In this document: in pieces, positions 8,448 to 63,817 of the stretch
How positions within the stretch are numbered: position 1 is the stretch's first letter
Layout: every line of letters begins with the position of its first letter
From: an uncultured virus (IMG/VR IMGVR_UViG_3300030202_003277)
Taxonomy: Duplodnaviria; Heunggongvirae; Uroviricota; Caudoviricetes
Length of the DNA stretch: 64,000 nucleotides
Reading direction: 5' to 3' (one strand)
Virus record (IMG/VR): IMGVR_UViG_3300030202_003277
Made by a program: the position numbers and the translations under genes
Notes under the pieces: generated by a model
What the model was told of the DNA's origin: nothing
The model's input: only the letters and a program-made list of their open reading frames with translations
Databases searched by the model: none

Positions 8448-8483
8448 AAAAAAAAAAGAGAGCGCTTATTTGCTCTCTTTTTT
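8448..8483. terminator. Bidirectional intrinsic terminator at the convergence of late and early/middle transcription
   Basis: A-tract, GAGAGC-loop-GCTCTC, T-tract. Confidence 0.75.
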
Positions 8484-8882
8484 AGTTTGTATAAATAACT
8501 TTCTTGTTATTCTAACTTCTTCAGATAATTTACTTATTTGCTTAAATAAGACTTTATCTGTATCCATATAATCTTGTATAGATTTTTTAGCGTGTAATAC
8601 AGTTGCGTGATCATACCCACCATAATAATCTCCTATTTTGATTAATATTTCATTTTTTAAATGTGTTTGTGCTAAAAACATCATAAGATGTCTTGCAAAA
8701 ACATGTTTACGTTTTCTTGATCTTGCGAAAACTTCTTCTTTACTCATTTCGAGTTCAGAACAAACTAAATTTCTAATAAATTTATAACCATCAAGTTTTA
8801 ATCCAGGAATGGTCATATAAGATAAATCTAATTTATTTTTCACAATTGTTTCTTGATGTATTTCTTCATTAATAATTGGCAT
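8466..8882 (-). CDS. DnaA C-terminal (domain IV) HTH protein
   Basis: SRKRKHVFARHLMMFL..IGDYYGGYDHATVLHA matches the DnaA domain IV DHxTVxHA signature. Confidence 0.8.
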   Translation of the reverse strand: MPIINEEIHQETIVKNKLDLSYMTIPGLKLDGYKFIRNLVCSELEMSKEEVFARSRKRKHVFARHLMMFLAQTHLKNEILIKIGDYYGGYDHATVLHAKKSIQDYMDTDKVLFKQISKLSEEVRITRKLFIQTKKESK

Positions 8883-11590: not shown

Positions 11591-12427
11591 TTAAAAAATG
11601 TATCTAATTGTATCTAATGAAAAAAACTTTTCATATTCATATTTAAATTGTTTAATCCAAACGTTTTTCCATTTTATAGGATATCTCATAACACCAGATT
11701 TATTTTTTATTTCAGAAGAATATTTCATTAATTCTTTTGCTTCTGGTAATGCTTTATCCATTTGGAATTTATGATTAGTTAAAGCTATAATTTCACATTT
11801 TATAGTGCCTACTATTTCTTTAATTGATTTAAATAAATTAACATATTCTTCTCTCCATCCTTCTACAAAAATTAAAGGACTATAATTTATATGTACTTCC
11901 CAACCTAAATCTTTTAATCTATTTATGTCATGTATTCTGCTTTCAATACTTTGCATTTTAGGTTCAAGTATATTAGAAAACTTTTGAGGCATTAAACTTA
12001 CTCTTACTCTTGGAGCTTTATAAAAATGCGTAACATCTAAATTTAATAAACCTGGGTATTTTGTAGCCATAGTTGTATTAAGATTAGTGTGGTTATCATA
12101 TCTTTTAAGATAATCTATTAATGGTTCTGGAGTATGTTTTTGCATTAATACTAAATCTGTATTGCAAGCTATATCTACCATAGTATATATAGGGTCTTGT
12201 TGATCAGGTTTTTTATTATATGTTTTTTCCCATTCAACAACAGATTGAAATATATCTTCTACATTTTCATTTACAAATACTCTATGACCATTATATCTTG
12301 ACATATAACAATATGTATCTATGCAATTTCCAAAACATCCATATATTAAATTTGGAGCTATACAATTTGCACTATTATTATTAGGTTTAGTTTCTAATGT
12401 TTTAGTTTTTTGTTTTTTTAAATTCAT
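11591..12427 (-). CDS. Spore photoproduct lyase-like radical SAM protein
   Basis: YGCFGNCIDTYCYM Cys cluster; ATK, RVRVSLMPQ, LEP..SIESRIHDIN..GWEVHINYSP, GVMRY motifs. Confidence 0.75.
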   Translation of the reverse strand: MNLKKQKTKTLETKPNNNSANCIAPNLIYGCFGNCIDTYCYMSRYNGHRVFVNENVEDIFQSVVEWEKTYNKKPDQQDPIYTMVDIACNTDLVLMQKHTPEPLIDYLKRYDNHTNLNTTMATKYPGLLNLDVTHFYKAPRVRVSLMPQKFSNILEPKMQSIESRIHDINRLKDLGWEVHINYSPLIFVEGWREEYVNLFKSIKEIVGTIKCEIIALTNHKFQMDKALPEAKELMKYSSEIKNKSGVMRYPIKWKNVWIKQFKYEYEKFFSLDTIRYIF

Positions 12428-12428
12428 T

Positions 12429-12872
12429 TTAAATTCCAATTTGATTAATAAAATTTTCTTCATTGGGATCTGGAATGTCAATTCCTCTAACAGCCCAATG
12501 ATTTTGAATTGTTTGTTTAAAATCATTAAATTGTATAGTGTTCATAGATTTTGTAGATACATCATTAAAAATTAAAATTTCTTTACCTAACACATTTAAA
12601 GTGTTAAACTTAGAAGCAATAACGACAGATTTATGATATGAGTGAATTTCTTCTTTAGTAAATAATTCACCTTGTATATTGTATAAATCTTCAGTAATTT
12701 TTTTTAAAGCAACTCCCCAATACCATCTGTTTTGAGCATTAGAACGATTTTTTTTATGTTTCTTAATGTTTATAACAACATCTTTACCTTCTATTGATGA
12801 AATAAAAGATTTTACTTTTTCTTCATTTAAGAAAGTCAATTTTCCTTTTTCTATTTTAGATATAAATTCCAT
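12429..12872 (-). CDS. NinB-like recombination protein
   Basis: RSNAQNRWYWG and STKSMNTIQFNDF motifs. Confidence 0.7.
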   Translation of the reverse strand: MEFISKIEKGKLTFLNEEKVKSFISSIEGKDVVINIKKHKKNRSNAQNRWYWGVALKKITEDLYNIQGELFTKEEIHSYHKSVVIASKFNTLNVLGKEILIFNDVSTKSMNTIQFNDFKQTIQNHWAVRGIDIPDPNEENFINQIGI

Positions 12873-12885
12873 AATATTAAATAAC

Positions 12886-12907
12886 AAAGGACACCGAAGT
12901 GCCCTTT
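12886..12907 (-). repeat. Early-gene hairpin element
   Basis: AAAGGGCAC-TTCG-GTGTCCTTT upstream of ATG 12872. Confidence 0.7.
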
Positions 12908-12914
12908 ATTAATC

Positions 12915-13550
12915 TTAAAATGGTAAATCATCGCCTTTTTCATCACCTAAAGAATCATCAGACATACCCTTATCAACAACTGGCTCTGCCTTGGGGGCAG
13001 CCGTTGTTGATTGTTTATGTTCTGATTCCCATTCTGCTAATCGAAGATTAAATTTCTCCATATCAGTAGGTCTTAAAGGAGTGTGAAAATATGATTGTAC
13101 ACCTTTTATTGTTTCTTCTGGCTTAGAAGAAAAACTATATTCAATTATTTCTTTTATAACAGGTTTGTTAAAATTGTTTTTGTCTTTACCTATATATTCA
13201 GATTTTTTAAATAAAGCTTTTATTTTACTTCCAATAATAGAATTTAAATACTCACCACCTTTTAAATTATCATCAGCATTAGCATTTGACAAAAACTCTT
13301 TAAGTCTTTTTAATTTAAATTCTCTGGCTTTTTCAGATTCTTTTCCTGTTAATAAATAAAAAGTAACATTACTTGTTTTTTGATCTTCAGTTTCTACTGC
13401 AAATTCAATATAAGGATTACCCTTATAATCTTTTCTACTTTCAGAAAGAAGATATGATTTAATCTTAACTATAAATACTCCAGGCTCATTTATAAATTTG
13501 CTTGAATTATCAAAGTCTTTTACGAGCTCTAACTCTGCGTTTATATCCAT
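12915..13550 (-). CDS. Single-stranded DNA-binding protein (DUF669-like)
   Basis: Follows the Sak4-like ATPase; acidic tail ending DDLPF. Confidence 0.7.
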   Translation of the reverse strand: MDINAELELVKDFDNSSKFINEPGVFIVKIKSYLLSESRKDYKGNPYIEFAVETEDQKTSNVTFYLLTGKESEKAREFKLKRLKEFLSNANADDNLKGGEYLNSIIGSKIKALFKKSEYIGKDKNNFNKPVIKEIIEYSFSSKPEETIKGVQSYFHTPLRPTDMEKFNLRLAEWESEHKQSTTAAPKAEPVVDKGMSDDSLGDEKGDDLPF

Positions 13551-16140: not shown

Positions 16141-16153
16141 ATAATTTATAATT

Positions 16154-16183
16154 TCAAGGCACACCAAAGAAGGTGTACCTTGA
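16154..16183 (-). repeat. Early-gene hairpin element
   Basis: TCAAGGTACACC-TTCTTT-GGTGTGCCTTGA before dnaB. Confidence 0.7.
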
Positions 16184-16623: not shown

Positions 16624-16952
16624 TATTCATCTTCTTTAAAAAAACTTTCAACTTTAGATAGTAAAGATTTTGCTATTCTTTCTTTACCTTTTTGCTCAAC
16701 TCTATGAGAAATCATTGCTTTAATAAACAATTTTAAACTTACTGTATTTGGACTACCATATTGTTTTTCAGTTGCATATTTTTCAAATATTTCAATAACG
16801 TCTGATTTATTAAAATTAACACAAGAAGCATCATATCCTTGAAATTTTGTTTTTTTCTTTTCTATTTTATCTTTGATTAATAGAGCAAGTTCTTCAACTT
16901 CTACATCATAAAGGTTATTTACTTTTTTTTCTAAAACTTTTTCAATTTTCAT
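16623..16952 (-). CDS. Hypothetical protein
   Basis: 109 aa coupled ORF. Confidence 0.5.
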   Translation of the reverse strand: MKIEKVLEKKVNNLYDVEVEELALLIKDKIEKKKTKFQGYDASCVNFNKSDVIEIFEKYATEKQYGSPNTVSLKLFIKAMISHRVEQKGKERIAKSLLSKVESFFKEDE

Positions 16953-18055
16953 ATTTTAGTTATTAATTTACCTGCGATATCTTCTATATCTCTTTTTCTT
17001 CGTGTATTTCCAGTTTGAACACCTACTTGAGTCATTGCTTGAGTAAGTTTCCAAATAGTATTTCTACCTTGTACACCATGTTCTGGGTTATTATCAGATA
17101 AGATATCAGTTAATGATTTAACTTCTTCTTTTCTCATACCTAATTTTGGAAGTAATTTAACTTCGTGATCTAAATTAATTAGCTTAGAACCGGCTTTCTC
17201 AATGTTTTGAATTTCATTAAATAAATAACTACTATCAAAAGCACTTTTTACAATATCTCTAACTAAAGAAGCTTGAGTTTCGGTATCTAATTTATATGTT
17301 TCATTACTTAAAATTAAATTATCTGGTAACTTTTTACCTAAATGAACTTGTCTAATTAAATTTTCTCTTGTCATTCCATTTAAACAAACTACTTGCATAG
17401 AATATGATTGAACTCTTAATGCTCCATCTCCATAATCAGAGTTAGAAATTCTAAGTCCAAATACCATATATGTTGTACCATTGTATTGTGTTTGTACAGG
17501 CACTACTTGAGGTAATATAAATTCTATATAAGTTCTTGTAGGGTCATAACAACAATCTAATAATTTTGCTCCTTGATCTACACAGGCGTTAAAAAATTCA
17601 GCATAAATTTCAGCTGTATTTAATCTTCTATATTTATCAGACAAAACACCTTTAACTTCTCCATTTAGTTCTCTTAAAAGATATCTTTTGCTTTCATTAT
17701 TAGTTGAGTGTTCATTTAATAATTTACTTGCTAAATCTCTTTCCCATTGCTCTTTACCAGTAGCTAAATTTTTCAAATAGGTTGTAGGTATTCCAAATTT
17801 ATCTGCAAATTGTCCAATTGCATGTCTATGAATATTCTTTTCAGCATTTTCAAATTGCATTTTTACTACACCATTTGAATTAAAATTAATTATAGGTGAA
17901 TCTTTACCAATAGGAACAACATAATCTATAATGTTATTACTTTCGTCTTGAATTTTTTGAATAATTGGCATTTTATCAGATGCATTACTCAATTTTCTTG
18001 TTATTTTTTCTTGAAGTATAGACTTCTCTGTTGGGTCAATTGTTTGTATTTCCAT
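16949..18055 (-). CDS. DUF932 family protein
   Basis: VLSDKYRRLN, ISNSDYGDGALRV, VVCLNGM motifs. Confidence 0.75.
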   Translation of the reverse strand: MEIQTIDPTEKSILQEKITRKLSNASDKMPIIQKIQDESNNIIDYVVPIGKDSPIINFNSNGVVKMQFENAEKNIHRHAIGQFADKFGIPTTYLKNLATGKEQWERDLASKLLNEHSTNNESKRYLLRELNGEVKGVLSDKYRRLNTAEIYAEFFNACVDQGAKLLDCCYDPTRTYIEFILPQVVPVQTQYNGTTYMVFGLRISNSDYGDGALRVQSYSMQVVCLNGMTRENLIRQVHLGKKLPDNLILSNETYKLDTETQASLVRDIVKSAFDSSYLFNEIQNIEKAGSKLINLDHEVKLLPKLGMRKEEVKSLTDILSDNNPEHGVQGRNTIWKLTQAMTQVGVQTGNTRRKRDIEDIAGKLITKI

Positions 18056-18073
18056 ATATATATATTTTAAAAC

Positions 18074-18101
18074 AAAGGACACCAAAGATTTGGTGCCCTT
18101 T
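18074..18101 (-). repeat. Early-gene hairpin element
   Basis: AAAGGGCACCAAA-TC-TTTGGTGTCCTTT. Confidence 0.7.
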
Positions 18102-18104
18102 TAT

Positions 18105-18869
18105 TTATAATTTAATTGGATTTACTATCATTTTATCTAAATTCATAAAAATTCCATTTTGTGAAGTTCTATATTGTCTAAATAATTTCCATAGTAAATT
18201 CATACCAAATTCTGCTAATGTTGAATTAACTAATAAATCTTGTCGATTTAAAGCTTCTAATGTACTACAGCTGGGTGTATCATCATTTTCAATTAATTTA
18301 CCTAACGTTTTTTCCATTTCAATAATAGTTGGCATTGTAATACATTTAGCACCTTTAGGTTGATTAATATGACCCATTGTACCTAATATTGCTTGACCGT
18401 AATTATTTCCATTTCCAAAATCTAACCAATAATAACAAGTATTATATGGTTGTTCTGTTCTTAATTTAGTTTTAACTTTTTGAATGTCTCTTCTAATTTG
18501 AACATTATCAACACAAGTAATAATTATATTATATTGTATTCGTGGGTTTTCAAAATCAATTTCAAATTTCTCACTATAACTATCCCAATTTGTACTATAG
18601 AATCTGTTAATTCTTTCTATTGTTACGTCTGATTTATTTCTCCCTAAATCCACTTCTGAAAATAATTGTCTGCCAATATTTGCTTGTGAAACTTCTTCAG
18701 GATCATAACATCTTACAAAAAAACCTGGATGTCCTAAACCTATTAATCCAGCATTCATTCTTCCTAATATAGCTAAAACTGAACTTCCTGTACCTCCAGC
18801 TCCTATTACTGCAATAGTTACTTTATGTACTGGTGCTATCAGAGATTGCTCCATATAATGATACTTCAT
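18105..18869 (-). CDS. PRTRC system ThiF-family (E1-like) protein
   Basis: GAGGTGS, DPEEVSQANIGRQ, CVDN, YWLDFGN, PSCSTLEAL..QDLLVN. Confidence 0.9.
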   Translation of the reverse strand: MKYHYMEQSLIAPVHKVTIAVIGAGGTGSSVLAILGRMNAGLIGLGHPGFFVRCYDPEEVSQANIGRQLFSEVDLGRNKSDVTIERINRFYSTNWDSYSEKFEIDFENPRIQYNIIITCVDNVQIRRDIQKVKTKLRTEQPYNTCYYWLDFGNGNNYGQAILGTMGHINQPKGAKCITMPTIIEMEKTLGKLIENDDTPSCSTLEALNRQDLLVNSTLAEFGMNLLWKLFRQYRTSQNGIFMNLDKMIVNPIKL

Positions 18870-19537
18870 ATTAAATCTTTTAAAAATTTATTATAACTTG
18901 TAAGATTTGCATTGTCATTAAAACCATTTCTATCCCAAATAACATTAATATTGTTTTTAAAATTAGAATGATTTAAATGAGTAAATTTTGAATTAAAAAA
19001 CATTCTTTCTATATGTATTATTAATTCTTCTAAATCAGATATATTCCAATCTATTTTAGCATTACCCATACATACCTTACCATCATTATAAATGTTATGA
19101 AAAGGAGCATAATAAATTTTAGTTTTTAAACCTCTATCTAATTTATATGCATAAACATATAATTCTCCGTTTTTAACTTGAAATATTAAATTAGGTATTA
19201 TTTTACGTTTATTTTGTATTTGATTAGTTTCGCTAAAAGTTAATTCTCTTACACTTTTCTTAAATAACCACATCAAATTTAAACTTTGATCTTTTAAATT
19301 AAAACGTACAACATTAGATGGAATAAAGTTTTTAAACTCATATTTACTTTTGTCTATACCTTTAATTTCTTCAAGTAATTTACCTAAAAGTTTAACTCTT
19401 GCTGGTTTACCAGGTCCAAATGTAAATTTATTGTCTTGTAATTCTTTAATTGTATGTTCTTCAACATAAGATGAAGATTCACTATGATATACAATTAAGC
19501 TCATTACGGGTTTTAGTGTTTCTGGAACATTGTTCAT
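18866..19537 (-). CDS. PRTRC system protein B (prokaryotic E2-like)
   Basis: PNLIF..LYVYAYK..YYAPFHNIYNDGKVCMG..FFNSKFTH. Confidence 0.85.
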   Translation of the reverse strand: MNNVPETLKPVMSLIVYHSESSSYVEEHTIKELQDNKFTFGPGKPARVKLLGKLLEEIKGIDKSKYEFKNFIPSNVVRFNLKDQSLNLMWLFKKSVRELTFSETNQIQNKRKIIPNLIFQVKNGELYVYAYKLDRGLKTKIYYAPFHNIYNDGKVCMGNAKIDWNISDLEELIIHIERMFFNSKFTHLNHSNFKNNINVIWDRNGFNDNANLTSYNKFLKDLI

Positions 19538-20160
19538 ATTTTAATTTTACCTTCTTCAGTAAAGCTTAGTTCTATTTGTTGTCCTATAGATTTTCTTATA
19601 TTTCTATTTGTTGGATAAATAAACATATGTTTAGAAAAATTACCTTTAAAAATGTAACCTTTATCTAACATTTCTTGTTTATTGTAAGTCTTAGCACCTG
19701 ATTTTCTGCTAACCATTTCTCCTTTATCATTTACATAATAAGGGTTCTTTTTAGTTATTCCATTATAATCCCAATTAGAAGCTCTATATAAGCCACCATT
19801 GTGATTATGAGCAGTATCAGCATATGTTAATAACGTTTGCCATCTTTTAGTATTTAGCATTTTAATACTTTTGCTAATTAAAAATGAACCTGCATTTTCA
19901 GGTCTATTTTCAACTAAACAAAATCTACTTAATCCTAAAACTGATTGATGATTATTACTAACATATTTAGCTGCTCCTAAAGCTGGTGTATTCCAAATTG
20001 CAACTCCATGTAATGTTGAAGGATCTCCTTTATAAAAAAGACCATAACATCTATGAGCTAAATATCCAGCTTTATGTGCATAATGCCATTGTTCAACAAA
20101 ATTATCTGCTTCAGATTTTCCTATTCTTTGAACTTCCCATTCATTTTTAATTAACTTCAT
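19534..20160 (-). CDS. Mom-like (GNAT-fold) DNA adenine modification enzyme
   Basis: FVEQWHY, LSRFCL..NAGSFLISKSIK, TYADTAHNHNGGLYRASNW. Confidence 0.75.
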   Translation of the reverse strand: MKLIKNEWEVQRIGKSEADNFVEQWHYAHKAGYLAHRCYGLFYKGDPSTLHGVAIWNTPALGAAKYVSNNHQSVLGLSRFCLVENRPENAGSFLISKSIKMLNTKRWQTLLTYADTAHNHNGGLYRASNWDYNGITKKNPYYVNDKGEMVSRKSGAKTYNKQEMLDKGYIFKGNFSKHMFIYPTNRNIRKSIGQQIELSFTEEGKIKI

Positions 20161-21191
20161 TATTCATAAATTAAGTAACTATTTTCTAACCATTTTTTAT
20201 ATTTTTCTGGAAAATCATTATTATAATCTTTTAAAAAAGGATTATTTTCTGTTAATTGTTGTTCTTTATAAAATGGTAAGATTTCACAGTTATTATAATA
20301 ATACTGACCTTGTTCTTCATATCGTTGAAAAACAAAATCTGTTTCTTCAATAGACCATAAAAAATTAGCATAATATTCTGGACCAAATAAATAATCATCT
20401 ACATCATTATTTTTCATCAGACTTTTAAATGGAATAAAATCGTTAAAATTAACATTTACAATTTCAAAACCTTCTTCAATCCATGCAACTAACTTTTGAT
20501 CTTTATAATTATTTATTTTTATTTTACTCAATTTATCTTTTAAAGTAAATTCAGTATCTATAGATTTTTCAAAATTAACTTTTTGATATAATGGTAAAAC
20601 TTTATTTCTATAAACTTTTAAAGTTTGTTTCATTTCGTCCATTTGGTCAATATCATCTATATCTTCTAAATTTTCAGTAAAATAATCATCTGAAATATCT
20701 ACCATATAATCTATATTATGTAAGAATGGTATATTAAATTTTTGAACTAAATAAGAAAAATAATCCCACATAAAAGTTTGAAATTCTTCTTTTAAATTAA
20801 AAATCCATTCTAATTCAGCACAAAATCCATTATCAAAACCATTTCCTTGTCCAGTCCATAGTTCTAATTCCATTTTATCATTTTGATATATATTCCAATT
20901 ATTTAAATCTTTAGTTATTTTTTTAATTAAATAATTATTAAACTCATATATATCCATGTTAGGTATATCATCATTTATATAATGTTTTCCAATTGGATAT
21001 AACAATTTTAATAGCTGTTTAGGATTTTTGTAAAAAATTAAATCAGATTTAGATTTTAAAATAGGGGTCTTAATAGACAAGAAGGAGTTTTTAGTCTTTC
21101 TTCTTGTACTACATTTCGTTTGTCTTCGCTTTCGTGCAATATTATTCTTGCAATCGCCACGTTTGGATTGATGTATTTCTTGGGTTTGCAT
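20160..21191 (-). CDS. Probable PRTRC system protein F-like
   Basis: Occupies the slot between C and B in the PRTRC order; basic N-terminus, acidic body; exact start uncertain. Confidence 0.5.
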   Translation of the reverse strand: MQTQEIHQSKRGDCKNNIARKRRQTKCSTRRKTKNSFLSIKTPILKSKSDLIFYKNPKQLLKLLYPIGKHYINDDIPNMDIYEFNNYLIKKITKDLNNWNIYQNDKMELELWTGQGNGFDNGFCAELEWIFNLKEEFQTFMWDYFSYLVQKFNIPFLHNIDYMVDISDDYFTENLEDIDDIDQMDEMKQTLKVYRNKVLPLYQKVNFEKSIDTEFTLKDKLSKIKINNYKDQKLVAWIEEGFEIVNVNFNDFIPFKSLMKNNDVDDYLFGPEYYANFLWSIEETDFVFQRYEEQGQYYYNNCEILPFYKEQQLTENNPFLKDYNNDFPEKYKKWLENSYLIYE

Positions 21192-21226
21192 TCTAATAGT
21201 TTTATGTATAAGTTTTCTTTTTTCAT
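21056..21226 (-). CDS. Overlapping 56-aa ORF
   Basis: ATG immediately after the hairpin element; MKKENLYIKLLECKPKK..LRPLF. Confidence 0.3.
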   Translation of the reverse strand: MKKENLYIKLLECKPKKYINPNVAIARIILHESEDKRNVVQEERLKTPSCLLRPLF

Positions 21227-21260
21227 AATCAAGGAACAACAAAGTGTTGCTCCCTGATTA
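21226..21260 (-). repeat. Early-gene hairpin element
   Basis: TAATCAGGGAGCAAC-ACTTT-GTTGTTCCTTGATTA. Confidence 0.7.
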
Positions 21261-21263
21261 TTC

Positions 21264-21482
21264 TTATTCATAAAACCATTCCTTTTTAAGCATATTATGG
21301 TGCAAATTATTTGCTTTTAATGTTACGTTTTCACTACACATATAACTTGTGCTACTTCCGTATTTTTCATTTACAAAACTGTCAAAATCAAATCTATTCT
21401 TTTGATTTTCAGATTTAAAATTGATAGTTTCAACTATAACACTTGCAGAACTATATTCAAAAATTATAACATAATAGTTCAC
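21264..21482 (-). CDS. Hypothetical protein
   Basis: 72 aa, GTG start overlapping the upstream TGA. Confidence 0.45.
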   Translation of the reverse strand: MNYYVIIFEYSSASVIVETINFKSENQKNRFDFDSFVNEKYGSSTSYMCSENVTLKANNLHHNMLKKEWFYE

Positions 21483-21652
21483 TTTTTTTTAGTATTTAAA
21501 TACTTTAAAAAATATCCCTTATTAAAATTTGAACAAGTTTTTTCTATGTGTTTAGTAATTGTAAAAGATATATCATTAAAATCTTGAACAGATGTATGTT
21601 TCTTGACCTCTAATAGAGCGTCTGCTACAATAATAAAATCTTTTCTTGTCAT
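21479..21652 (-). CDS. Small hypothetical phage protein (57 aa)
   Basis: MTRKDFIIVADAL..SNFNKGYFLKY; absent from the ORF track. Confidence 0.55.
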   Translation of the reverse strand: MTRKDFIIVADALLEVKKHTSVQDFNDISFTITKHIEKTCSNFNKGYFLKYLNTKKK

Positions 21653-21654
21653 AG

Positions 21655-21858
21655 TTATCCTTTAGTTCCAACGTTATTTTGGAATTTATAAACAACTTTG
21701 TCATTTTTAATTTCTGGTCCTACTACAGAAGCTGTAGTTAATTCAGGATATTGTCCAGAATAAAAATCTAATACATCATTAACAGTCATATTGTTAGATG
21801 GGTCTGTTAATTCTGTATCTCCATGCATAAAGATTCTTTCTATTTGTTTTATTTCCAT
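21655..21858 (-). CDS. PRTRC system protein C (prokaryotic ubiquitin-like)
   Basis: LTDPS..VLDFYSGQYPELTTASVVGP..VGTKG with a terminal Gly. Confidence 0.9.
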   Translation of the reverse strand: MEIKQIERIFMHGDTELTDPSNNMTVNDVLDFYSGQYPELTTASVVGPEIKNDKVVYKFQNNVGTKG

Positions 21859-22628
21859 TAGTAATAAGTATAATTAGAAGGGTTATTATTTAGTTTTTCG
21901 TTTCTTTGATCAATAATCATTTGAGTTTGCTCATCAGTTATTGTAGTTCCTAAAGAATTATTTTCTTGTGTAGGTGGAGTTTTATATTCTTCAATATTAG
22001 CTTCATCTATTCTTGCTTCAAATTCTTTATCTTCATTTACAATCTTTGGTGTTCCATCAGGATATGTAGGTTGAGCTGGTTCAACTTGAACTGGTTCAGC
22101 TCTTGGTACATCAGGTAATGGTTGACTAAACATATCTGGTTGAGAGTTATTTGCATCACATTCTTTAACAAGCTGTGTAGCTTTACTAAATTTAGGATCA
22201 TCTTTAAGAATTTCATTACAGATAAATTTACATTTATCATATTCTTTTTCATCCCAATATTTTTGAGCTTTTTCAAGTTGTTTAACTGAATTTTCTCTAA
22301 CTTTCTTTTGTTTGTCTTTTTCTGCTTTTGCTATTGCTGATTCTTCTTTAGCTTTTTCTACTGATTGTTCGTGTTGATGTATATTTCTTAATAATCCACT
22401 TGTTTGTTGTAGAGGTTTAGCTAATAATTGAAAAAATTGAGCATCAAATTCTTCTACAGTACCAGTAAATAATATTGGTTGTAGTAAATCTTTTGCTTTG
22501 TCTTGAACTTTTATTAATGGGTTTACACTTACAGTTAATTCATGTTCATTATTCTTTCGAATAGTAATATTAACTGTTTCGCTTATTAATAATAAGTTGT
22601 TAATTTGTTGGAAAAATTTATCATTCAT
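21858..22628 (-). CDS. PRTRC system protein E
   Basis: FFQQI..PILFTGTVEEFDAQFFQLLAKPLQQTSGL; TPR-like helix pair and low-complexity tail. Confidence 0.85.
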   Translation of the reverse strand: MNDKFFQQINNLLLISETVNITIRKNNEHELTVSVNPLIKVQDKAKDLLQPILFTGTVEEFDAQFFQLLAKPLQQTSGLLRNIHQHEQSVEKAKEESAIAKAEKDKQKKVRENSVKQLEKAQKYWDEKEYDKCKFICNEILKDDPKFSKATQLVKECDANNSQPDMFSQPLPDVPRAEPVQVEPAQPTYPDGTPKIVNEDKEFEARIDEANIEEYKTPPTQENNSLGTTITDEQTQMIIDQRNEKLNNNPSNYTYY

Positions 22629-22643
22629 ATATATAGTTTTAAA

Positions 22644-22678
22644 TTATCAAGCCACACCAAAGTGATGCGACTTGATAA
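22644..22678 (-). repeat. Early-gene hairpin element
   Basis: TTATCAAGTCGCATC-ACTTT-GGTGTGGCTTGATAA, 15 bp with 3 G-U pairs. Confidence 0.7.
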
Positions 22679-24529: not shown

Positions 24530-24847
24530 TTAATCTTTTGGTCTTATATCAAGATCATCTAACTTTTTAACGTCAAATCCTATTAATTTAGATAATCCAG
24601 TATCAAAATCTACATGATTACCTGAATATTTTTTTACAATATCAGTTTTTAATATTGTAATTTTATCAGGTACTTGTTCTGATGGATTAACTAAGCTATC
24701 ATACCATTTATCAGCTTCTTCTAAACTGTCACATAATGTATGAGATAGTAAATCTCCATTTTCTTCTACAAAGTATCTAAAATGGTCTACACCATCTAAA
24801 TCTCTGTATTTAAATTCTTTAATTAATTGATAAGTATTTTCTTGCAT
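24530..24847 (-). CDS. Hypothetical acidic protein
   Basis: 105 aa. Confidence 0.55.
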   Translation of the reverse strand: MQENTYQLIKEFKYRDLDGVDHFRYFVEENGDLLSHTLCDSLEEADKWYDSLVNPSEQVPDKITILKTDIVKKYSGNHVDFDTGLSKLIGFDVKKLDDLDIRPKD

Positions 24848-27124: not shown

Positions 27125-27141
27125 TGTATATAATTTTATAA

Positions 27142-27171
27142 ATTCAACCAACAACAAAGTGCTGGTTGAAT
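27142..27171 (-). repeat. Early-gene hairpin element
   Basis: ATTCAACCAGCA-CTTTGT-TGTTGGTTGAAT. Confidence 0.7.
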
Positions 27172-27447: not shown

Positions 27448-27464
27448 AGTATATAATTTATAAA

Positions 27465-27492
27465 TTCAACAGGCACCAAAGTACCTGTTGAA
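27465..27492 (-). repeat. Early-gene hairpin element
   Basis: TTCAACAGGTAC-TTTG-GTGCCTGTTGAA. Confidence 0.7.
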
Positions 27493-28421: not shown

Positions 28422-28438
28422 GATAGTATAATTTTTAA

Positions 28439-28466
28439 ATTCAAGGCACAATTAAGTGCCCTGAAT
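28439..28466 (-). repeat. Early-gene hairpin element
   Basis: ATTCAGGGCAC-TTAATT-GTGCCTTGAAT. Confidence 0.7.
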
Positions 28467-47181: not shown

Positions 47182-48417
47182 ATGGCATTATTTACAGACA
47201 AAAAAGAATTACCAAGACAAGCAGAGTATGTTCCAATGGAAACTGCTACAGGCTTAAGAAAAGTTGGATTAGCTGCATTAGGATATAAAGCAGATGGTAG
47301 TTTAAATACTATTGGCAAAATACAAGAATATAACCCATCACCTACACATGGTTTAAGAAATTTAGGGGCACAAGCATTTGCAAAAAAAGGTTCTGATTAT
47401 TCTAAAGTTATAAAAGAAGGAAGTGGAGATGCATGGACTCAAGATTTAAATTCTGTAGATTTTGCATGGCAAGCATTTAAAGTTTATTTATCTATGGGAG
47501 GTTCTGTAGGTGGAGGGGCTTCAGCTGCAACTGCTGGTGCAACTTCTACTCCAACTACAGGGGCTGCTGTTACAAGTGGTGCAAGTTCTGCGCCTGCGGG
47601 AGCCGGTACTGCTGTTCAAGGTCTTGATACATCAACAAGTGCTTTTAGTGGAATGGGTAGTGGAGCTGAAATAGCTTCTGGTCTTAGTACTGATATGACT
47701 ACTACTGCTGCTGCTTCAGCTATACCAACATATGATGTTGCTTCATGGACAACTGGAACTGCTATGGATGGAGCTGGTAATATAGTTGATAAAAATATAT
47801 TAGATGAAATTAATTCTGGAACATATGATGAAATTTATGATACAGAAGAAACTAATATGATGGATAGATTTTTAGAATATATGGGTCAAAAAGATGATGG
47901 TAAAACATCAGGCATTACTCCAGGTGGAGAAGAATATGATATTATTTCTCCTGATGTAATGGGAAGAAAAGGTAGTGGTACAGGTGAAGGAACTGGTGTA
48001 GATTTAGATAGCAAAAGGCCGGGAAGTACTTTTGTAGATAAATTAGATCCTAATCAAAAACAAATGTTAAATAAAAATCTTGACCAAGCTAAAAAAGAAA
48101 TGTCTAAAAAAGATAAAAAAAATGCAGACGCAGATTATGCAAATTGGAAAGCAGCTGCTGAACAACAAGGATTAAAAGTAATAGGAACAGACGCTGTTGA
48201 TAATACAGGTCAAGTTCAAGCAACTTTTAATGCAACAGATGATTCAGCAGAAAATAAAAAACGTTCTGGAGATGCTCTTAAAAATATGGCAATGGGTGGT
48301 ATAGTATCATCAGGGGCTAATTTAATTAATACAGCAACATCAAACATTAATGATGCTGAAGATAGAGTAAAAGAATATCAAAATCAAGGATCAATGACAA
48401 CAAGTTATTTATTATAA
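47182..48417 (+). CDS. Putative ejection/cargo protein
   Basis: G/A/S/T-rich, follows the muzzle gene. Confidence 0.5.
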   Translation: MALFTDKKELPRQAEYVPMETATGLRKVGLAALGYKADGSLNTIGKIQEYNPSPTHGLRNLGAQAFAKKGSDYSKVIKEGSGDAWTQDLNSVDFAWQAFKVYLSMGGSVGGGASAATAGATSTPTTGAAVTSGASSAPAGAGTAVQGLDTSTSAFSGMGSGAEIASGLSTDMTTTAAASAIPTYDVASWTTGTAMDGAGNIVDKNILDEINSGTYDEIYDTEETNMMDRFLEYMGQKDDGKTSGITPGGEEYDIISPDVMGRKGSGTGEGTGVDLDSKRPGSTFVDKLDPNQKQMLNKNLDQAKKEMSKKDKKNADADYANWKAAAEQQGLKVIGTDAVDNTGQVQATFNATDDSAENKKRSGDALKNMAMGGIVSSGANLINTATSNINDAEDRVKEYQNQGSMTTSYLL

Positions 48418-48419
48418 TT

Positions 48420-51400
48420 ATGGCAGAAAATAGTAACAATCCTACATGGACAGAAGCAGACCAAAAGGAATATGACAAGTATAAAAAATTTGAAACAAAA
48501 GATGGTCTTTTAGGTAGATATTGGTGGAGACAAATAAAAGAAAAAAAACGAAAGTATGATCAATTTGTTGCAAATTCTCAAAGTAAGTATGATAATTTTT
48601 CAACTGATGTTGCCCGTAATATTGAAACTGAATTTATACAACCTCAAGCGTTTATAGAAAAAAATCCTGATGGTACAGCAACATATTATACTAAAGCTCC
48701 AGAATCAGCATTAGAACCTAATAAAGAAGGAAATTTTAAATATGATGCATGGAATCAAGAAGGAGCAAAAAACATTGGATATTATCGAGCACCTTTTGCT
48801 TTACCAAAAAATTCTGAATTAATAAATTTAAGTGGTATTCAATATATAATAACTCCAGACAGAACAAATAATTTACCAACATTAAATAGAGTTGAAGAAA
48901 ATTCAGCAGTAGCTGAAACTTGGACAAGTGCACAAGAAGCATTTAATTTAGTAAATAAAGCTGGAACAACAAATTTAACAGATGCATATTCTGATGAAAA
49001 TATTTCAACTGCATTATTGAATGAAGCAAAATATTATGCTGATACTCAAGGTGTTGACATGGAAAATGGAAAATGGACTAAAGAACAGTATAATAATATA
49101 AATAAATTTAAAAAATTAGCTGACTCTTACTCTTTAAATATGTCTGAAGCTGGAGAAGAAAAATATAAAGACGCTCAATATAGTTTTCAAAAAAACATAA
49201 TGAGTCCTTATTATATTAGACAATTAGAAGATACTAAAGAGTGGCAAATTGATCAAGCTGAAATTGCAGATGCAGCATTAACAAACGCTATTGCAAGTGG
49301 TGCTGATGAACAAACTATAAACAGATTAGCAATTGCTAAAGAACAAAAAGATAAAGATTTAAAAGATAGAACTGCAGCTTCAAATGAAGCTATAAGTCAA
49401 ATTAGAGATGCGTTAGCTCCAGAAAAAAGAACTCCAAAAACTTATGGAGTATTTGATGATTTTTTTGCAGCTGTAGATAATGCATTATCTCCTGGTGCAG
49501 TAGGTAATATGTACTCTATTGACCAAGAAGGAAATAAACTTATTGGAACATCTACAGAAGAAAAACAAAATTTATTAAATGTTTTTAATAAAAATCTTCT
49601 TCCAGCTTTTGATGGTGTTAGTGAAAGAAATCAAAGTTTAAATAATACTAATGTTGTAACTCAAGATAATCTACCTACAGACGAAACTGATTATACTAAT
49701 AATCAATTAGGGCCTCAAACTGGAACTGGTATGGGTACAGGTGGTGGTACAAGTCAAAAACAACGTACTGGTGTAGGTGGAGGATATAGTAAAAGTGGTT
49801 TTGGATATAATATTAAAGATCCTAATAATGAAAAAGGTTTTGTTCCTACTACTGAGTTTATTAATGATTTAGGAAATACAGCAGCAAAAGGGCCTGATGG
49901 TACTGTTGTTATGACTGAAAGAACAATGAAAGATGTTCAAAGAGATATAGCAGATATAGATTCAGCAATAGGAAAAATAAATCAACCTATAGAAGAAGTT
50001 GGTGCTTATGCTCCAGATTTAGAACCTGGTTCAAATATTGGTGGTTTTATTGGAGATGCTGGTAGAGCATTAATAGGAATAAGGGGTGCGATGGAAGAAG
50101 TTCCAGAATATCAAACAGGAGAAATGTATAATCTTGCTATGGATGAAATGACAGCTCGTAGAGATTTAGGTATGAGTGATGAAGAAATTGCATTTTCAAG
50201 AAATTTAGCAGAAAGAGGTTATGGATATGATGTTAAAAATGTAAGAAGATTAGCTGGTGGTAGTGCTGGAGTTGCTTTAGGTAACTTAGGAAGAGCGCAA
50301 GGGCAATTGTATGACCAATATGCTAATATAGCTGCTGCAGACCAGCGAGTTAGAAGAGCTAATAGAGATCAGTTTTATAGGGGAGCTATGGCAGATGAAA
50401 ACATCAATAGACAAAAATTTCAAGATGAATTTCAACAAGCTGTTATGAATAAACAATCTGGAGCTATGTTAGTTAATGATGCATTAACTAATATGGATGA
50501 AAGAATGCAATTTAATAAAGCATATGGAAAAGGTTCTCCTTATTATGAAATGATGAAATCTACATGGCAAAGTTCAGAACAAGAAAGAATTAATAAAGAA
50601 GAAGCATTAAAAAATACACGTCAATCTAATATTGATAACTTAAATAAACGAAAAGAAGATTATCAATCAGAATTAGATAAAATGCAAACTTTAGGTACTG
50701 GAAATCAAGTTGTTTTACCTGACCCTAAAGATAATACACCTCGAACAATTGCAGAACAAACATTACAAACTGTACCAACTGGTGGAGTTGATGTAACTAA
50801 TGTTGAAAATACTGCTGGAGATGCTACAGAAATTGCAGAATATAAAAGAAGAGTAGATGATGGAGAAAATGAAATGGATGTTTTAATGGATCTTCGTAAA
50901 AAAAGAAAAGCTGGACAAGGGATTCTTAATAATGTTAATGATGTTGAAGAACCTGTAGTAGATGAAACTTTCGTTGAACAAACACCTATAACTGGAGATA
51001 CAGATAATTTAGGTGATCCTATGGCTACTGATAATAAACCTGTTGCTGGTGAATTAGAAAAGGTTTCTCCTGAAAATCAAACTTGGGAAGATAAATTAGC
51101 TGATTATAAATCTGAGTTTAAAGATGAAGAAACATTAGCAAAATATGAAGAAAATCCAATTGCATTTTTAGAAGAAGATATAAGAGGGTGGGAAAGTGAA
51201 CCAGATAGTGAACAAAAAACTCAAAGTCTTAAAAATCTTAATGAAAATCTTGAGATATTAAAGAATGAACAACCAGGTACATCATTAGTTAAAACTACAG
51301 AAGATTCAGAAGCTATAGATGAAAGTATACCAGAATATAGTAATATTTATGGATTAGATAATGTTAGTAGTGCTGTAGGAGAATATGAAGGAGATTTAGC

Positions 51401-51974
51401 TGTAACAGATAATGGAGAATTAGTTGAATGGAATATTTTTGATGAAAAATGGGATAAATCTCCAGAAAGTAGACAACCAAAATTTGTTTATGAAGGACCA
51501 GAGAATTATGAATTATATAAATCTAATTCACCAAGGTCAGCTACAGATTATAATATAACTCCTTTTATTAATAAAGTTAAATCGGGTTCATCTAAAGATG
51601 AAGTTTTAAAAGATATAAAAGATTTATCTAAAATACAGATAGATAAAACATGGGGTAATAATAATTTAAGTTTTGCAAGTGCTACATCAAATCAAATTAT
51701 GTTTAATAAATCAGAACAAAAAGATTTTGAAAAATTATTAGATTCAGATGAATTTAAAAAACTTGTTGGTGGAAGAGATAGTCAAATACCTGATTTATTA
51801 ATGGAAGTTGAAAGACAACTTGAAAATGGTTCAACACAAGGATTGTCAAATAATTTTTTACAGAAAACTAAAAAATCATTAATTAGATTTAATGAAGCAA
51901 GAGATAAATATATTACTCAAAAATCTAATGAATTAAATGATGAATTATCTAAACAATTTTTACAGAACTTATAA
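48420..51974 (+). CDS. Large putative ejection/cargo protein
   Basis: Helical Q/A/E-rich with AGGSAGVALGNLG segment. Confidence 0.55.
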   Translation: MAENSNNPTWTEADQKEYDKYKKFETKDGLLGRYWWRQIKEKKRKYDQFVANSQSKYDNFSTDVARNIETEFIQPQAFIEKNPDGTATYYTKAPESALEPNKEGNFKYDAWNQEGAKNIGYYRAPFALPKNSELINLSGIQYIITPDRTNNLPTLNRVEENSAVAETWTSAQEAFNLVNKAGTTNLTDAYSDENISTALLNEAKYYADTQGVDMENGKWTKEQYNNINKFKKLADSYSLNMSEAGEEKYKDAQYSFQKNIMSPYYIRQLEDTKEWQIDQAEIADAALTNAIASGADEQTINRLAIAKEQKDKDLKDRTAASNEAISQIRDALAPEKRTPKTYGVFDDFFAAVDNALSPGAVGNMYSIDQEGNKLIGTSTEEKQNLLNVFNKNLLPAFDGVSERNQSLNNTNVVTQDNLPTDETDYTNNQLGPQTGTGMGTGGGTSQKQRTGVGGGYSKSGFGYNIKDPNNEKGFVPTTEFINDLGNTAAKGPDGTVVMTERTMKDVQRDIADIDSAIGKINQPIEEVGAYAPDLEPGSNIGGFIGDAGRALIGIRGAMEEVPEYQTGEMYNLAMDEMTARRDLGMSDEEIAFSRNLAERGYGYDVKNVRRLAGGSAGVALGNLGRAQGQLYDQYANIAAADQRVRRANRDQFYRGAMADENINRQKFQDEFQQAVMNKQSGAMLVNDALTNMDERMQFNKAYGKGSPYYEMMKSTWQSSEQERINKEEALKNTRQSNIDNLNKRKEDYQSELDKMQTLGTGNQVVLPDPKDNTPRTIAEQTLQTVPTGGVDVTNVENTAGDATEIAEYKRRVDDGENEMDVLMDLRKKRKAGQGILNNVNDVEEPVVDETFVEQTPITGDTDNLGDPMATDNKPVAGELEKVSPENQTWEDKLADYKSEFKDEETLAKYEENPIAFLEEDIRGWESEPDSEQKTQSLKNLNENLEILKNEQPGTSLVKTTEDSEAIDESIPEYSNIYGLDNVSSAVGEYEGDLAVTDNGELVEWNIFDEKWDKSPESRQPKFVYEGPENYELYKSNSPRSATDYNITPFINKVKSGSSKDEVLKDIKDLSKIQIDKTWGNNNLSFASATSNQIMFNKSEQKDFEKLLDSDEFKKLVGGRDSQIPDLLMEVERQLENGSTQGLSNNFLQKTKKSLIRFNEARDKYITQKSNELNDELSKQFLQNL

Positions 51975-51996
51975 AATAATACTTTAAATTTATATT

Positions 51997-62600: not shown

Positions 62601-63817
62601 CTACTGATAATTTAGCAAAAAGACCATTGATTAAACATTACTCTAAAATGCTTGTAAAATTAAATGGTTTTTATAATGCAAGATTTTATATAAATGATAA
62701 TCAATTCTATGATCTTGGTATGCAATTAGCTACTCAAATTTTTGGAAAAAATTCAGCTATTTATAAACATAAAGAAACTTTTGAATCTATAAAAGATACT
62801 ATGTATTTATGGAGAGCACAAAAAGAGTTTAACAATCAAATTGATTCAGCTCCTGTATTTATACAAGATACTGTTAACAAATTTGAAACAATTATAAATT
62901 CATTAAACAATACTAATGAAAGTAATTTGTTTATTTCAAAACCTTATGGTGTTAGTGATCAAGCTTTTAATCAAGTTATGAATCAATTGAAATCAGCAAA
63001 AGAAATGAGTGTTCAAACTCCAGAAGTTTTTACTAATGAATTGAATAGACTAATAACTTCTGAAAATCAAATTGAACGTATAATTGGAGAAGCAGTTGTT
63101 AAAAATCAAGAATATGCTGCAATAGGAAATCAATTAAGTAATAATGCATTTATTAAACATTTAACAATTCAAGAAACTAAAGATGGAACTAAACATATTG
63201 TGCCAGTTAAATTAATTAATGATATTTCTGTTTCTGGATTAAAAGTAATTCAAGATGCATATAATAATTTAGCTAATATTGAAGGTGGAGTAGGTTTAAC
63301 TTTACAAAAAGAGATTAGAGCTTATGCAATGTTAAGATTTGGTATGGCTTCTAAAATGGGAAGTATATCTAAAATGTTTCCAACAGGAATGTCTATTGCA
63401 GTATTAAAAAATTCTCGAGATTTTAAAAATAATGCTATTGACACTCAAAGTGCAACTAATTTCTTTGTTAACCCAAAAAATATTGAAATGTTAAAAGCAA
63501 ATACAGCTATTATGATGAAAGAAAAATTACCATTAGCTGTACCTACAGATAGACAAATTTCAAGTGATTCAGATTTAGCTTATGGCACATATTATGCACA
63601 TTCTGAAGGAGTTACTGTAAATACAAAATCAGATTTTGTTAATATTAATAATGATGTATATAGAAGAGTACCTGAAAGTAATATTTTTCAAAATTTAAAA
63701 GGTCTTGGTGGAATGAAAGAAAAAGGTTATACTGTATTAATTAAAGATAAAAACAGCTTTGATTTAAGCAATAGAGAAGTACAAGATAATGCTAATCAAA
63801 TTAAAAAAGAATGTTAA
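53658..63817 (+). CDS. Giant (~3,390 aa) virion protein containing the RNA polymerase catalytic domain; split in the ORF track by an N gap
   Basis: Both frames are open up to the gap at 57684-57693; HEGAH zincin motif at 57725-57739; VVRVP and DADNDGD (61562-61582) double-psi beta-barrel motifs. Confidence 0.8.

Follow-up and report, generated by a model that had tools for sequence, protein, structure and literature searches.

Gene content of the locus

The 64,000-nt stretch of DNA analysed here, the uncultured virus record IMGVR_UViG_3300030202_003277 (hereafter the window, to the whole of which all coordinates refer), carries a cassette of the PRTRC type. This cassette encodes ThiF, a putative ubiquitin-activating (E1)-like enzyme, protein B, which resembles ubiquitin-conjugating (E2) enzymes, protein C, a ubiquitin-like protein (Ubl), protein E, and an F-position protein that is here called F′. 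The region from 16.9 to 22.7 kb is a single tightly packed gene run on the minus strand, in which the coding regions of E and C overlap by 1 base (at 21858) and those of B and ThiF by 4 bases (18866-18869). From E to ThiF, the genes and small open reading frames (ORFs) are as follows.

21858-22628, minus strand: PRTRC protein E (PF19556, 4.1e-31; TIGR03741, 59.9 bits against a cut-off of 37.95)
21655-21858, minus strand: PRTRC protein C, the ubiquitin-like modifier, 67 aa (PF14454, Prok_Ub, 1.9e-27; TIGR03738, 73.7 bits against 45.95)
21479-21652, minus strand: small ORF of 57 aa, between C and the F-position gene
21264-21482, minus strand: small ORF of 72 aa, also between C and the F-position gene
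20160-21191, minus strand: F-position protein F′, 343 aa from the probable ATG, the ORF being open from a TTG at 21242 (360 aa); matched by a profile of other F-position proteins
19534-20160, minus strand: Mom-like DNA-modification gene (PF25680, 4.6e-28; phrog_1384, 2e-38)
18866-19537, minus strand: PRTRC protein B, E2-like (Prok-E2_D; PF14460, 4.1e-22, 79.2 bits against 25)
18105-18869, minus strand: PRTRC ThiF-family E1-like adenylating enzyme (TIGR03736, 235.7 bits against 144.75, E 4.7e-70; PF00899)

A first-pass annotation of this DNA had described a co-oriented run E–C–two small ORFs–F-like–Mom-like–B–ThiF, and this run is present on the minus strand at the positions listed. A profile hidden Markov model search, which the same annotation had proposed as a check, showed that E, C and ThiF pass the cut-offs of the TIGRFAM PRTRC models, and that B passes that of Pfam and stays under that of TIGR03737. 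The matches support the assignment of the cassette as a genuine PRTRC-type E1/E2/Ubl set with its catalytic residues intact. The two small ORFs matched no family in the NCBIfam, Pfam and PADLOC scans; across the window's clade (loci L010-L014), the 57-aa product is 68-100% identical and the 72-aa product 45-100% identical.

The plus strand of the window encodes a crAss-type major capsid protein (Crass_capsid, 1.8e-51), tail ring proteins (CrAss_Ring_1, 2e-29; CrAss_Ring_2, 3.1e-32) and a crassvirus muzzle protein (crAss_MUZ, 2.5e-94), all identified with Pfam among the window ORFs, as well as a terminase large subunit (TerL) and a portal protein that match crAss-type PHROGs. Judged from these virion-gene matches, the contig is a crAss-like phage. 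The best matches of its TerL were Crassvirales at only about 25-28% identity, indicating that the contig is a distant member. The arm that holds the cassette also encodes DnaB, a Sak4-like ATPase, a single-stranded DNA-binding (SSB)-like protein and a PD-(D/E)XK exonuclease. The earlier placement of the cassette in the early/replication arm of a crAss-like phage was thus borne out by both the virion genes and the replication neighbours. No integrase or partition gene was detected by Pfam among the 60 window ORFs; Pfam on the same ORFs and tblastn or profile searches found no DNA polymerase gene and no dnaN in the window, and no tRNA genes were found in it.

Conserved catalytic residues in ThiF, protein B and protein C

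The ThiF residues G23-A-G-G-T-G28, D56, N64, R67-Q68, K79, D121 and P199-S-C201-S were invariant in all 21 sequences aligned, and the nucleotide-binding stretch aligns with the active adenylation domain of yeast Uba1. The closest named proteins are PRTRC ThiF proteins of Bacteroidota, with which the window ThiF shares 45-50% identity. Cys201 is a candidate catalytic residue. In protein B, Cys156 lies in the context P145-F-H-N148-...-V-C156-M-G158 (HNIYNDGKVC156MG), with His187 further downstream; W90, P115, N148, C156 and G158 were kept in 66/66 relatives and H187 in 60/66. A search of PDB sequences at E<=10 found nothing related to protein B. Protein C ends in ...NNVGTKG-stop, that is, G64-T-K66-G67, and G64 and K66 were kept in 65/65 sequences.

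The catalytic features picked out in the first-pass annotation, namely the GAGGTG stretch and PSC cysteine of ThiF, the NIYNDGKVCMG cysteine of B and the TKG end of C, are therefore all there and are conserved in relatives. The conservation of these residues supports the activity of the cassette.

A non-conjugating alternative would have ThiF and C acting as a sulfur-carrier pair in the manner of ThiF/ThiS or MoeB/MoaD, with a thiocarboxylate being formed for nucleic-acid or cofactor modification. ThiF does weakly match ThiF/MoeB sulfur-transfer enzymes, the Ubl ends in a single Gly, and a Mom DNA-modification gene stands inside the cassette. However, an E2-like protein with an invariant Cys (66/66) is always present, neither the cassette nor the annotated neighbourhoods showed a rhodanese, a cysteine desulfurase or a sulfur-acceptor enzyme, and Mom is accessory (see below), making this alternative very improbable.

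Absence of JAB and ParB genes

The Pfam scan of the 60 window ORFs found neither a JAB nor a ParB domain. A tblastn search with protein A of Ralstonia phage Dina (locus L001) was likewise empty, one with a phage ParB-HTH protein (HTH, helix-turn-helix) reached E 0.13 only, and the TIGR03734 (ParB) model was run on 12 window proteins only. The slot of protein A, between B and ThiF, holds no gene in the window, and B adjoins ThiF without an intervening gene in nearly all of the loci mapped (70-odd viral and 80 cellular). Among the 64 distinct Ubls of the IMG/VR loci, 62 end in G-x-K-G-stop and two in K-A. In Dina, protein A belongs to TIGR03735 (DUF2016 plus Prok-JAB) and the Ubl extends 62 aa past the Ub domain. 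The absence of ParB and JAB genes and the Gly end of the Ubl, all noticed at first pass, were confirmed by the Pfam scan, the tblastn searches and the GTKG-stop. Because 62 of the 64 Ubls stop at Gly without a JAB, and Dina combines a JAB with an extended Ubl, the absence of JAB and the mature Gly end are, as far as these comparisons reach, a trait of the entire Bacteroidota/phage branch and not of the window phage alone.

Compared with PRTRC as defined by NCBIfam (TIGR03734-TIGR03742) and as represented by Dina, whose RefSeq annotation (NC_055026) lists PRTRC E, C, F, B, A and ThiF, the window has the same order for E, C, the F-position gene, B and ThiF. Its E, C and ThiF pass the curated cut-offs, and the same catalytic Cys and Gly features are found. 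It differs in having neither protein A (DUF2016 plus Prok-JAB) nor ParB, in having a Ubl that is made mature, unlike that of Dina with its 62-aa C-terminal extension, and in having two small ORFs and a Mom gene inserted. Furthermore, F′ is unmatched by TIGR03742, the F′ profile does not match Dina's F, and B is under its curated cut-off.

The operon type 6d of Iyer et al. (2006; PMC1779556), in the part of that paper describing it, resembles the window cassette in three respects: the Ub-like protein has a conserved Gly at its C-terminus, the E2-like protein has a conserved His on the C-terminal side of the Cys (His187 in the window, 60/66 relatives), and there is a rapidly diverging, mostly alpha-helical extra protein, to which F′ is similar in this general description. 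Type 6d has a JAB with an N-terminal JAB-N, which is absent from the window, and its description there includes no phage genomes of the window's kind, no E motif and no dnaN.

The lack of ParB bears on the name 'ParB/ThiF partitioning cassette', according to which the genes would form a partition or maintenance module. In Burkholderia prophages the cassette is called a putative partitioning cassette of unstudied function, in a passage that gives no experiments (PMC13366799). Canonical PRTRC includes a ParB homologue, and a ParB-HTH gene lies near the cassette in one 92-kb phage (locus L037). Nevertheless, the window has no ParB, crAss-like phages retain the cassette while their scanned ORFs revealed no integrase or partition gene, and its enzymology is that of protein tagging. 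A partition role is, if anything, even more improbable than a sulfur-carrier role.

Distribution of the cassette and its history in phages

A nucleotide search of the cassette DNA against 50,697 phage records gave no match. In IMG/VR, the gene region was found on eight contigs with ThiF 66-100% identical, and in the five that are long enough (L010-L014) the cassette order and flanks are the same as in the window. More widely, 180 IMG/VR stretches encode a relative of ThiF, of which 80 were fetched. In two more phage clades (L027/29/31/32/57 and L035/41), the DnaB–Sak4–SSB–exonuclease block is 40-61% identical to that of the window and the cassette stands beside DnaB. One of these loci, L031, belongs to a record of 69,220 bp that is rated complete; the TerL encoded there is 60% identical to that of the window, and the cassette is present. 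RecT, DnaN, SNF2 helicase, HNH or terminase genes stand close by in other carriers.

With ThiF as a tblastn query against the 50,697 phage records, full-length relatives were found in two Ralstonia phages, Dina and YO105_4, and in Burkholderia phage BgVeeders33, and in UniProt the name PRTRC_E is given to a protein of an uncultured Caudovirales phage. In a Phocaeicola prophage, PRTRC protein B is a recurrent mutational hotspot that is said to be diversified by a diversity-generating retroelement, according to the part of a preprint dealing with it (10.64898/2026.10.01.756045). The earlier statement that such cassettes are known mainly from plasmids and integrative and conjugative elements (ICEs) is out of date, given the Dina RefSeq set, the prophage papers and the UniProt PRTRC_E entry.

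Cellular relatives are nearly all from Bacteroidota. Cassettes in ICEs or conjugative transposons (CTns) of this phylum, represented by a Flavobacterium locus (L164) and a Phocaeicola vulgatus locus (L105), have the same JAB-less E–C–F′–B–ThiF core with ThiF 41-50% identical, and their E carries the same ...[S/D]-[L/M]-F motif. Both settings are ICE-like, with integrase–HTH–SSB–DUF932–DUF1281_C in L164 and DUF3945/topoisomerase in L105. Whereas the ICE/CTn cassettes neighbour integrase, SSB, DUF932, DUF1281_C or topoisomerase/DUF3945 genes, the window cassette is accompanied by phage DnaB, Sak4, SSB and exonuclease genes and by crAss-type virion genes.

A tree of 148 ThiF sequences separated viral from cellular rows in part and contained large viral-only clades; the viral/cellular labels changed 17 times, and nine of these changes were forced by starred branches. 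The window's clade stands beside another phage clade (Shimodaira–Hasegawa-like approximate likelihood ratio test (SH-aLRT) 90), and the next branch is a 'Flavobacteriaceae' contig on which RecT, DnaN and terminase genes are also found, with long branches making deeper placement unsure. On the evidence of this tree and of conservation across phage clades, a recent capture from an ICE was rejected. The idea that a lytic phage had domesticated the cassette, put forward at first pass, holds in so far as the cassette is embedded in a phage genome, but not as a special or recent capture, since it is lineage-wide, occurs on 180 IMG/VR stretches and forms viral-only clades. At the level of sequence comparison, these results show the JAB-less five-gene form to be a stable, long-held part of the replication module in crAss-like and other Bacteroidota phages. 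Classified on the same grounds, the window cassette is not canonical PRTRC and belongs, as an ordinary member, to a JAB-less branch that is widespread and already carries PRTRC names in databases.

Two other loci contain further genes near the cassette. In L037 (2029-6498), the 92-kb phage rated complete, a ParB-HTH protein and a RadC-like JAB protein are encoded upstream of E, together with a divergent DnaN-like protein of 462 aa, and an AAA_5 ATPase and a DUF2201 metallopeptidase/von Willebrand factor type A protein are encoded downstream of ThiF. In L016, a 259-aa ORF at 12473-13252, about 1.7 kb downstream of ThiF, weakly matches a prokaryotic RING finger, below the threshold of the model (Prok-RING_4, E 0.0013; 19 bits, cut-off 27).

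An intergenic hairpin element in and around the cassette

Hairpin leaders had been noticed at first pass before E, before F and after ThiF. They are real, and were found to be members of a family of 13 minus-strand intergenic copies between 8374 and 29136, in the early/replication arm.

22638-22662, minus strand: hairpin and AT-rich leader before E (repeat families D1/D2/D6)
21221-21248, minus strand: the same recurrent hairpin element before the F-position gene (repeat family copy)
18062-18087, minus strand: the same recurrent hairpin element after ThiF and before the DUF932-like gene (stem-loop, then T-run)
12874-12899, 16145-16169, 27135-27170, 27457-27492 and 28432-28456, minus strand: examples of further copies

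The element consists of a GC-containing stem-loop with the core CTTTGKTG, followed by TTG, an AT-rich stretch of about 20 nt (…AAAATTATATA…) and ATG. Its layout suggests a role, all along the early/replication arm, as a combined terminator/promoter or leader.

The element also bears on whether the locus could be an assembly chimera, in which a fragment of an ICE or plasmid was joined to a phage contig. The nearest named ThiF proteins do come from Bacteroidota genomes (45-50% identity). However, relatives have the same junctions, with eight contigs holding the gene region; the phage's own repeat element stands before, inside and after the cassette; the G+C content is even across the arm (0.24-0.27); and coding strand and gene packing are continuous. 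The embedding of the cassette in the phage's own regulatory repeats argues against a chimera, and together with the shared junctions, the uniform G+C content and the continuous coding strand it refutes an origin of this kind, which is barely conceivable.

The F-position gene and the Mom insert

F′ did not match TIGR03742 even at E<=10, showed no similarity to the PRTRC_F of Dina (BLASTP and hmmsearch; hhalign probability 0.1%) and matched nothing in any family library scanned, including NCBIfam, Pfam and PADLOC. Pairwise BLASTP against two other F-position proteins was marginal (best E 0.006). In 7/7 Bacteroidota-type loci (L016, L031, L164, L105, L037, L020 and L090), a gene of 360-420 aa between C and B was likewise unmatched by TIGR03742 and Pfam. 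A profile built from 61 F-position proteins of other cassettes spans F′ end to end with 58.5 bits, and three relatives from the window's clade with 54.9-71.8 bits; this full-length match indicates that F′ and the F-position proteins of other Bacteroidota cassettes are orthologous. The earlier label 'F-like', which had gone by position, is thus apt with respect to the F-position genes of other cassettes, but not in the sense of similarity to TIGR03742 or to the F of Dina, with which F′ shares only its place in the cassette and an approximate size.

An AlphaFold 2 (AF2) model of F′ made from 53 sequences is mostly helical (predicted local distance difference test (pLDDT) 83, predicted template modelling score 0.79). 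The protein is fast-evolving, with a mean column identity of 18% over the 53 sequences, and the model had no clear solved relative (best E 0.68 with Foldseek in the PDB; best Z 3.6 with VIA-align; no usable match in the ESM Atlas).

The Mom gene is present in the window, L010 and L014, and a DNA alignment of the window and L014 shows it as a clean 0.63-kb gene at the F′/B junction. L011, whose ThiF is 96% identical, has an unrelated 125-nt filler where the window has Mom; in L012 and L013, Mom is absent and F′ and B abut. No Mom match was found elsewhere among 168 loci. The Mom-like gene reported at first pass as part of the run is therefore at the locus, but it is no core member: being variable at the F′/B junction and dispensable in close relatives, it was rejected as a core cassette gene. 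Going by its distribution, it is an accessory insert unrelated to the cassette.

Protein E and a possible link to the sliding clamp

The alignment and a structural model of protein E showed, in order, a small N-terminal alpha/beta domain, a helix of about 70 residues with a Lys/Glu-rich stretch, a helix pair, and a tail containing a motif. The tail is variable, disordered and acidic, save for this one conserved short motif. The AF2 model (pLDDT 77) matched no solved structure (Foldseek, PDB, best E 0.094), and its best match in BFVD was a PRTRC_E-named protein of an uncultured Caudovirales phage (E 3.5e-4).

The tail motif reads [Q/E/V/G]-x-[S/D/N/G/T]-[L/M/I]-F, and in the window S-Q-P-D-M-F167. 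In a set of 43 distinct E proteins of full length, [LMIF]F occupies the motif column in 40, and Gln stands at -4 in 16; the motif lies at or within 3 residues of the C-terminus in L016, L026, L037, L061 and L082. Pentapeptides that bind the beta clamp usually sit close to the end of a protein. Their consensus is given as QL(S/D)LF in the pertinent part of a published account (PMC9690074).

The neighbourhood of the cassette was compared in 112 distinct loci, made up of 57 IMG/VR loci and 55 genome contigs. The result showed that a three-domain dnaN stands directly upstream of E, less than 2 kb upstream of C and on the same strand, in 26/112 loci (23/57 in IMG/VR and 3/55 among genome contigs; of the latter three, L090 is annotated and phage-like). 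In one further locus dnaN lies directly after ThiF, and in three it lies elsewhere. The dnaN-led loci are spread over several separate ThiF clades. Since dnaN is found neither in the window nor in its complete relative, any clamp partner there would be the host's. A complex prediction for the phage DnaN of L016 and the adjacent E scored 0.10 against a mark of 0.32, without controls; as short-peptide interfaces seldom reach this mark, the result speaks neither for nor against an interaction.

The conserved QL[SD]LF-like motif in E and the position of dnaN upstream of E suggest action at the sliding clamp. Taken by itself, the view that the cassette acts on the clamp is a tentative one that may well be wrong.

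In some loci E is fused to other domains, following an N6-adenine methyltransferase-like N-terminus in L026 (6156-7613) and a DksA/TraR-type zinc finger in L045 (5931-7469). The proteobacterial-type E of Dina (2404-2994) has ...T-G-L-D-L-P-I at its very end, a short hydrophobic tip that differs from the Bacteroidota-type motif.

Neighbouring genes

Directly downstream of ThiF lies one further gene of the same run.

16949-18055, minus strand: DUF932-like gene (phrog_1362, 3.5e-56)

Its DUF932 signal is weak (Pfam E 0.0057; TIGR03299 E 0.028; hhalign against an ICE DUF932, E 0.001, probability 21%). In 18 cellular PRTRC loci, a true DUF932 gene stands 1-3.5 kb upstream of C. The gene after ThiF is a neighbour that is possibly linked to the cassette in function.

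Elsewhere in the replication arm, also on the minus strand, are genes for a protein that shares with DnaA its C-terminal HTH domain only (8466-8882; PF08299, 1.4e-16) and for a spore-photoproduct-lyase-like protein (11591-12526; PF20903, 4.4e-16). A 105-aa protein encoded at 24530-24847 on the minus strand weakly matches Tad8, an inhibitor of Thoeris, at a score below threshold (PF25189, E 8.2e-4; 19.5 bits, cut-off 27). After the muzzle gene, the plus strand at 47182-63817 contains very large ORFs of 411, 1184, 553, 1362 and 2009 aa, none of which has a Pfam or PHROG match.

Comparison with other ubiquitin-like systems

CBASS (cyclic oligonucleotide-based antiphage signalling system) Cap2/Cap3 and Bil are anti-phage bacterial ubiquitin-like systems. 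The window cassette has in common with them E1/E2-type chemistry on a Ubl or a Ubl-like C-terminus. It differs in that its E1 and E2 are separate small proteins, in that it has no cGAS-like or effector gene, and in that it is encoded by a phage and not by a host. ThiF gave partial weak matches to the 'E1-E2' models of PADLOC (best E 1e-6, residues 15-139), and no model of PADLOC-DB of 2023 matched B, C, E or F′.

A system for host takeover or counter-defence, in which the Ubl would be put early on host defence proteins or other host proteins, or would shield phage proteins, so as to disarm immunity, had been proposed at first pass. Such a role would fit the position of the cassette in the early/replication arm, the insertion of a Mom-like gene of the anti-restriction, DNA-modification type, the adjacent DUF932-like gene, and the ICE-type loci, in which the cassette occurs with SSB and DUF932 beside an integrase (L164) or beside topoisomerase/DUF3945 (L105). 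The hotspot in protein B of the Phocaeicola prophage, as described in the preprint cited above, would fit an arms race over target recognition. On the other hand, the E1 alone gives CBASS E1-E2 matches, weak and partial ones, with B, C, E and F′ unmatched in PADLOC; Mom is dispensable in close relatives; and the most consistent extra phage neighbour is dnaN rather than a gene for defence or anti-defence. This role is rather unlikely. The gene neighbourhoods point to the replisome at least as strongly as to host takeover or counter-defence.

A ThiF-type E1-like gene in the replication region is also found in another member of the Crassvirales, Bacteroides phage crAss001 (locus L002, 3271-5669), in which gp76, a 383-aa ThiF-like protein, is encoded beside gp77, which has a metalloprotease domain. 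Only the first ~115 residues of gp76 align with the window ThiF (32% identity), and no Prok_Ub, Prok-E2_D or PRTRC_E is annotated alongside. The partial alignment and the absence of Ub, E2 and E neighbours imply that gp76/gp77 is a different E1-based system. The same stretch of about 115 ThiF residues is matched by 26 Bacteroides phage records and by Kehishuvirus 'tikkala', most of them annotated as 'thiamine biosynthesis protein'.

Discussion

The cassette is probably a real, active E1–E2–Ubl conjugation module that has been held long-term by a phage lineage. Its core, E–C–F′–B–ThiF, would be a JAB-less and ParB-less branch of PRTRC inherited within the replication gene block of a crAss-like lineage with genomes of about 69 kb. 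In the mechanism envisaged from the conserved residues, ThiF would adenylate the free C-terminal Gly67 of the 67-aa Ubl and would probably then hold it as a thioester on Cys201; the Ubl would be handed to Cys156 of the E2-like protein B and from there to a lysine of the target. As the Ubl is made mature and there is no JAB, the tag would need no processing and would probably not be removed by the cassette itself. E and F′ may be conserved, fast-evolving accessory subunits, serving as specificity factors or substrates. The most likely site of action would be the replisome, in view of the clamp-binding-like peptide of E and of the dnaN that leads the cassette in many related phages. As the window lacks both dnaN and a polymerase gene, the clamp on which E docked would be that of the host.

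Several points weigh against this reading. Protein B scores 97.1 bits with TIGR03737 (E 9.3e-28), under the curated 131.45. The ThiF tree does not unite the phage clades with the shared replication block in a single well-supported clade (SH-aLRT 80-90, long branches). No dnaN lies within the fetched flanks (about 10 kb) of 82/112 loci, the window's clade included. The E motif is degenerate, being QPDMF in the window and lacking Gln in many relatives, and short motifs can have other origins. As F′ and E have no recognisable fold relatives, the roles proposed for them are guesses. Finally, a literature search found no experimental work on PRTRC cassettes among the matches listed, so that conjugation itself is something we infer.

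A more specific proposal is that PRTRC-type cassettes carry out sliding-clamp-directed tagging and are a phage/prokaryotic counterpart of the ubiquitylation/SUMOylation of proliferating cell nuclear antigen. Under this proposal, which is possible but doubtful, E would dock on the beta clamp via its QL[SD]LF-like peptide and would bring, or itself be, a substrate of the E1–E2–Ubl set. A phage or conjugative element would thereby mark the clamp or clamp-bound host proteins and steer the host replisome to its own DNA. Phages with a dnaN of their own would place it at the head of the operon, while the window phage would tag the host clamp. ParB itself is a DNA clamp, and in proteobacterial cassettes it would stand where dnaN does in the dnaN-led loci. 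Of the possible roles, replisome- or clamp-directed tagging was ranked first and counter-defence tagging second.

No paper linking PRTRC with crAss-like phages or with the clamp was found in the literature. Searches for ThiF together with ubiquitin in crAss-like phages gave nothing relevant among the matches listed, a search on Prok-E2 in phages likewise brought up nothing pertinent, and no paper since 2015 was found on a ubiquitin-like protein with ThiF and JAB in conjugative elements.

Among bacterial ubiquitin-like systems, PRTRC-type cassettes belong to the most widespread, and the JAB-less form is a compact one that consists of five small proteins and whose Ubl is made mature. The position of dnaN and the E motif give a specific hypothesis, namely that E binds the clamp and that the clamp or a partner of it is tagged. 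If this is true, sliding-clamp tagging, a hallmark of eukaryotic genome maintenance, would have a counterpart in bacterial mobile elements; if it is false, the cassette would still be a candidate phage tool for modifying host proteins.

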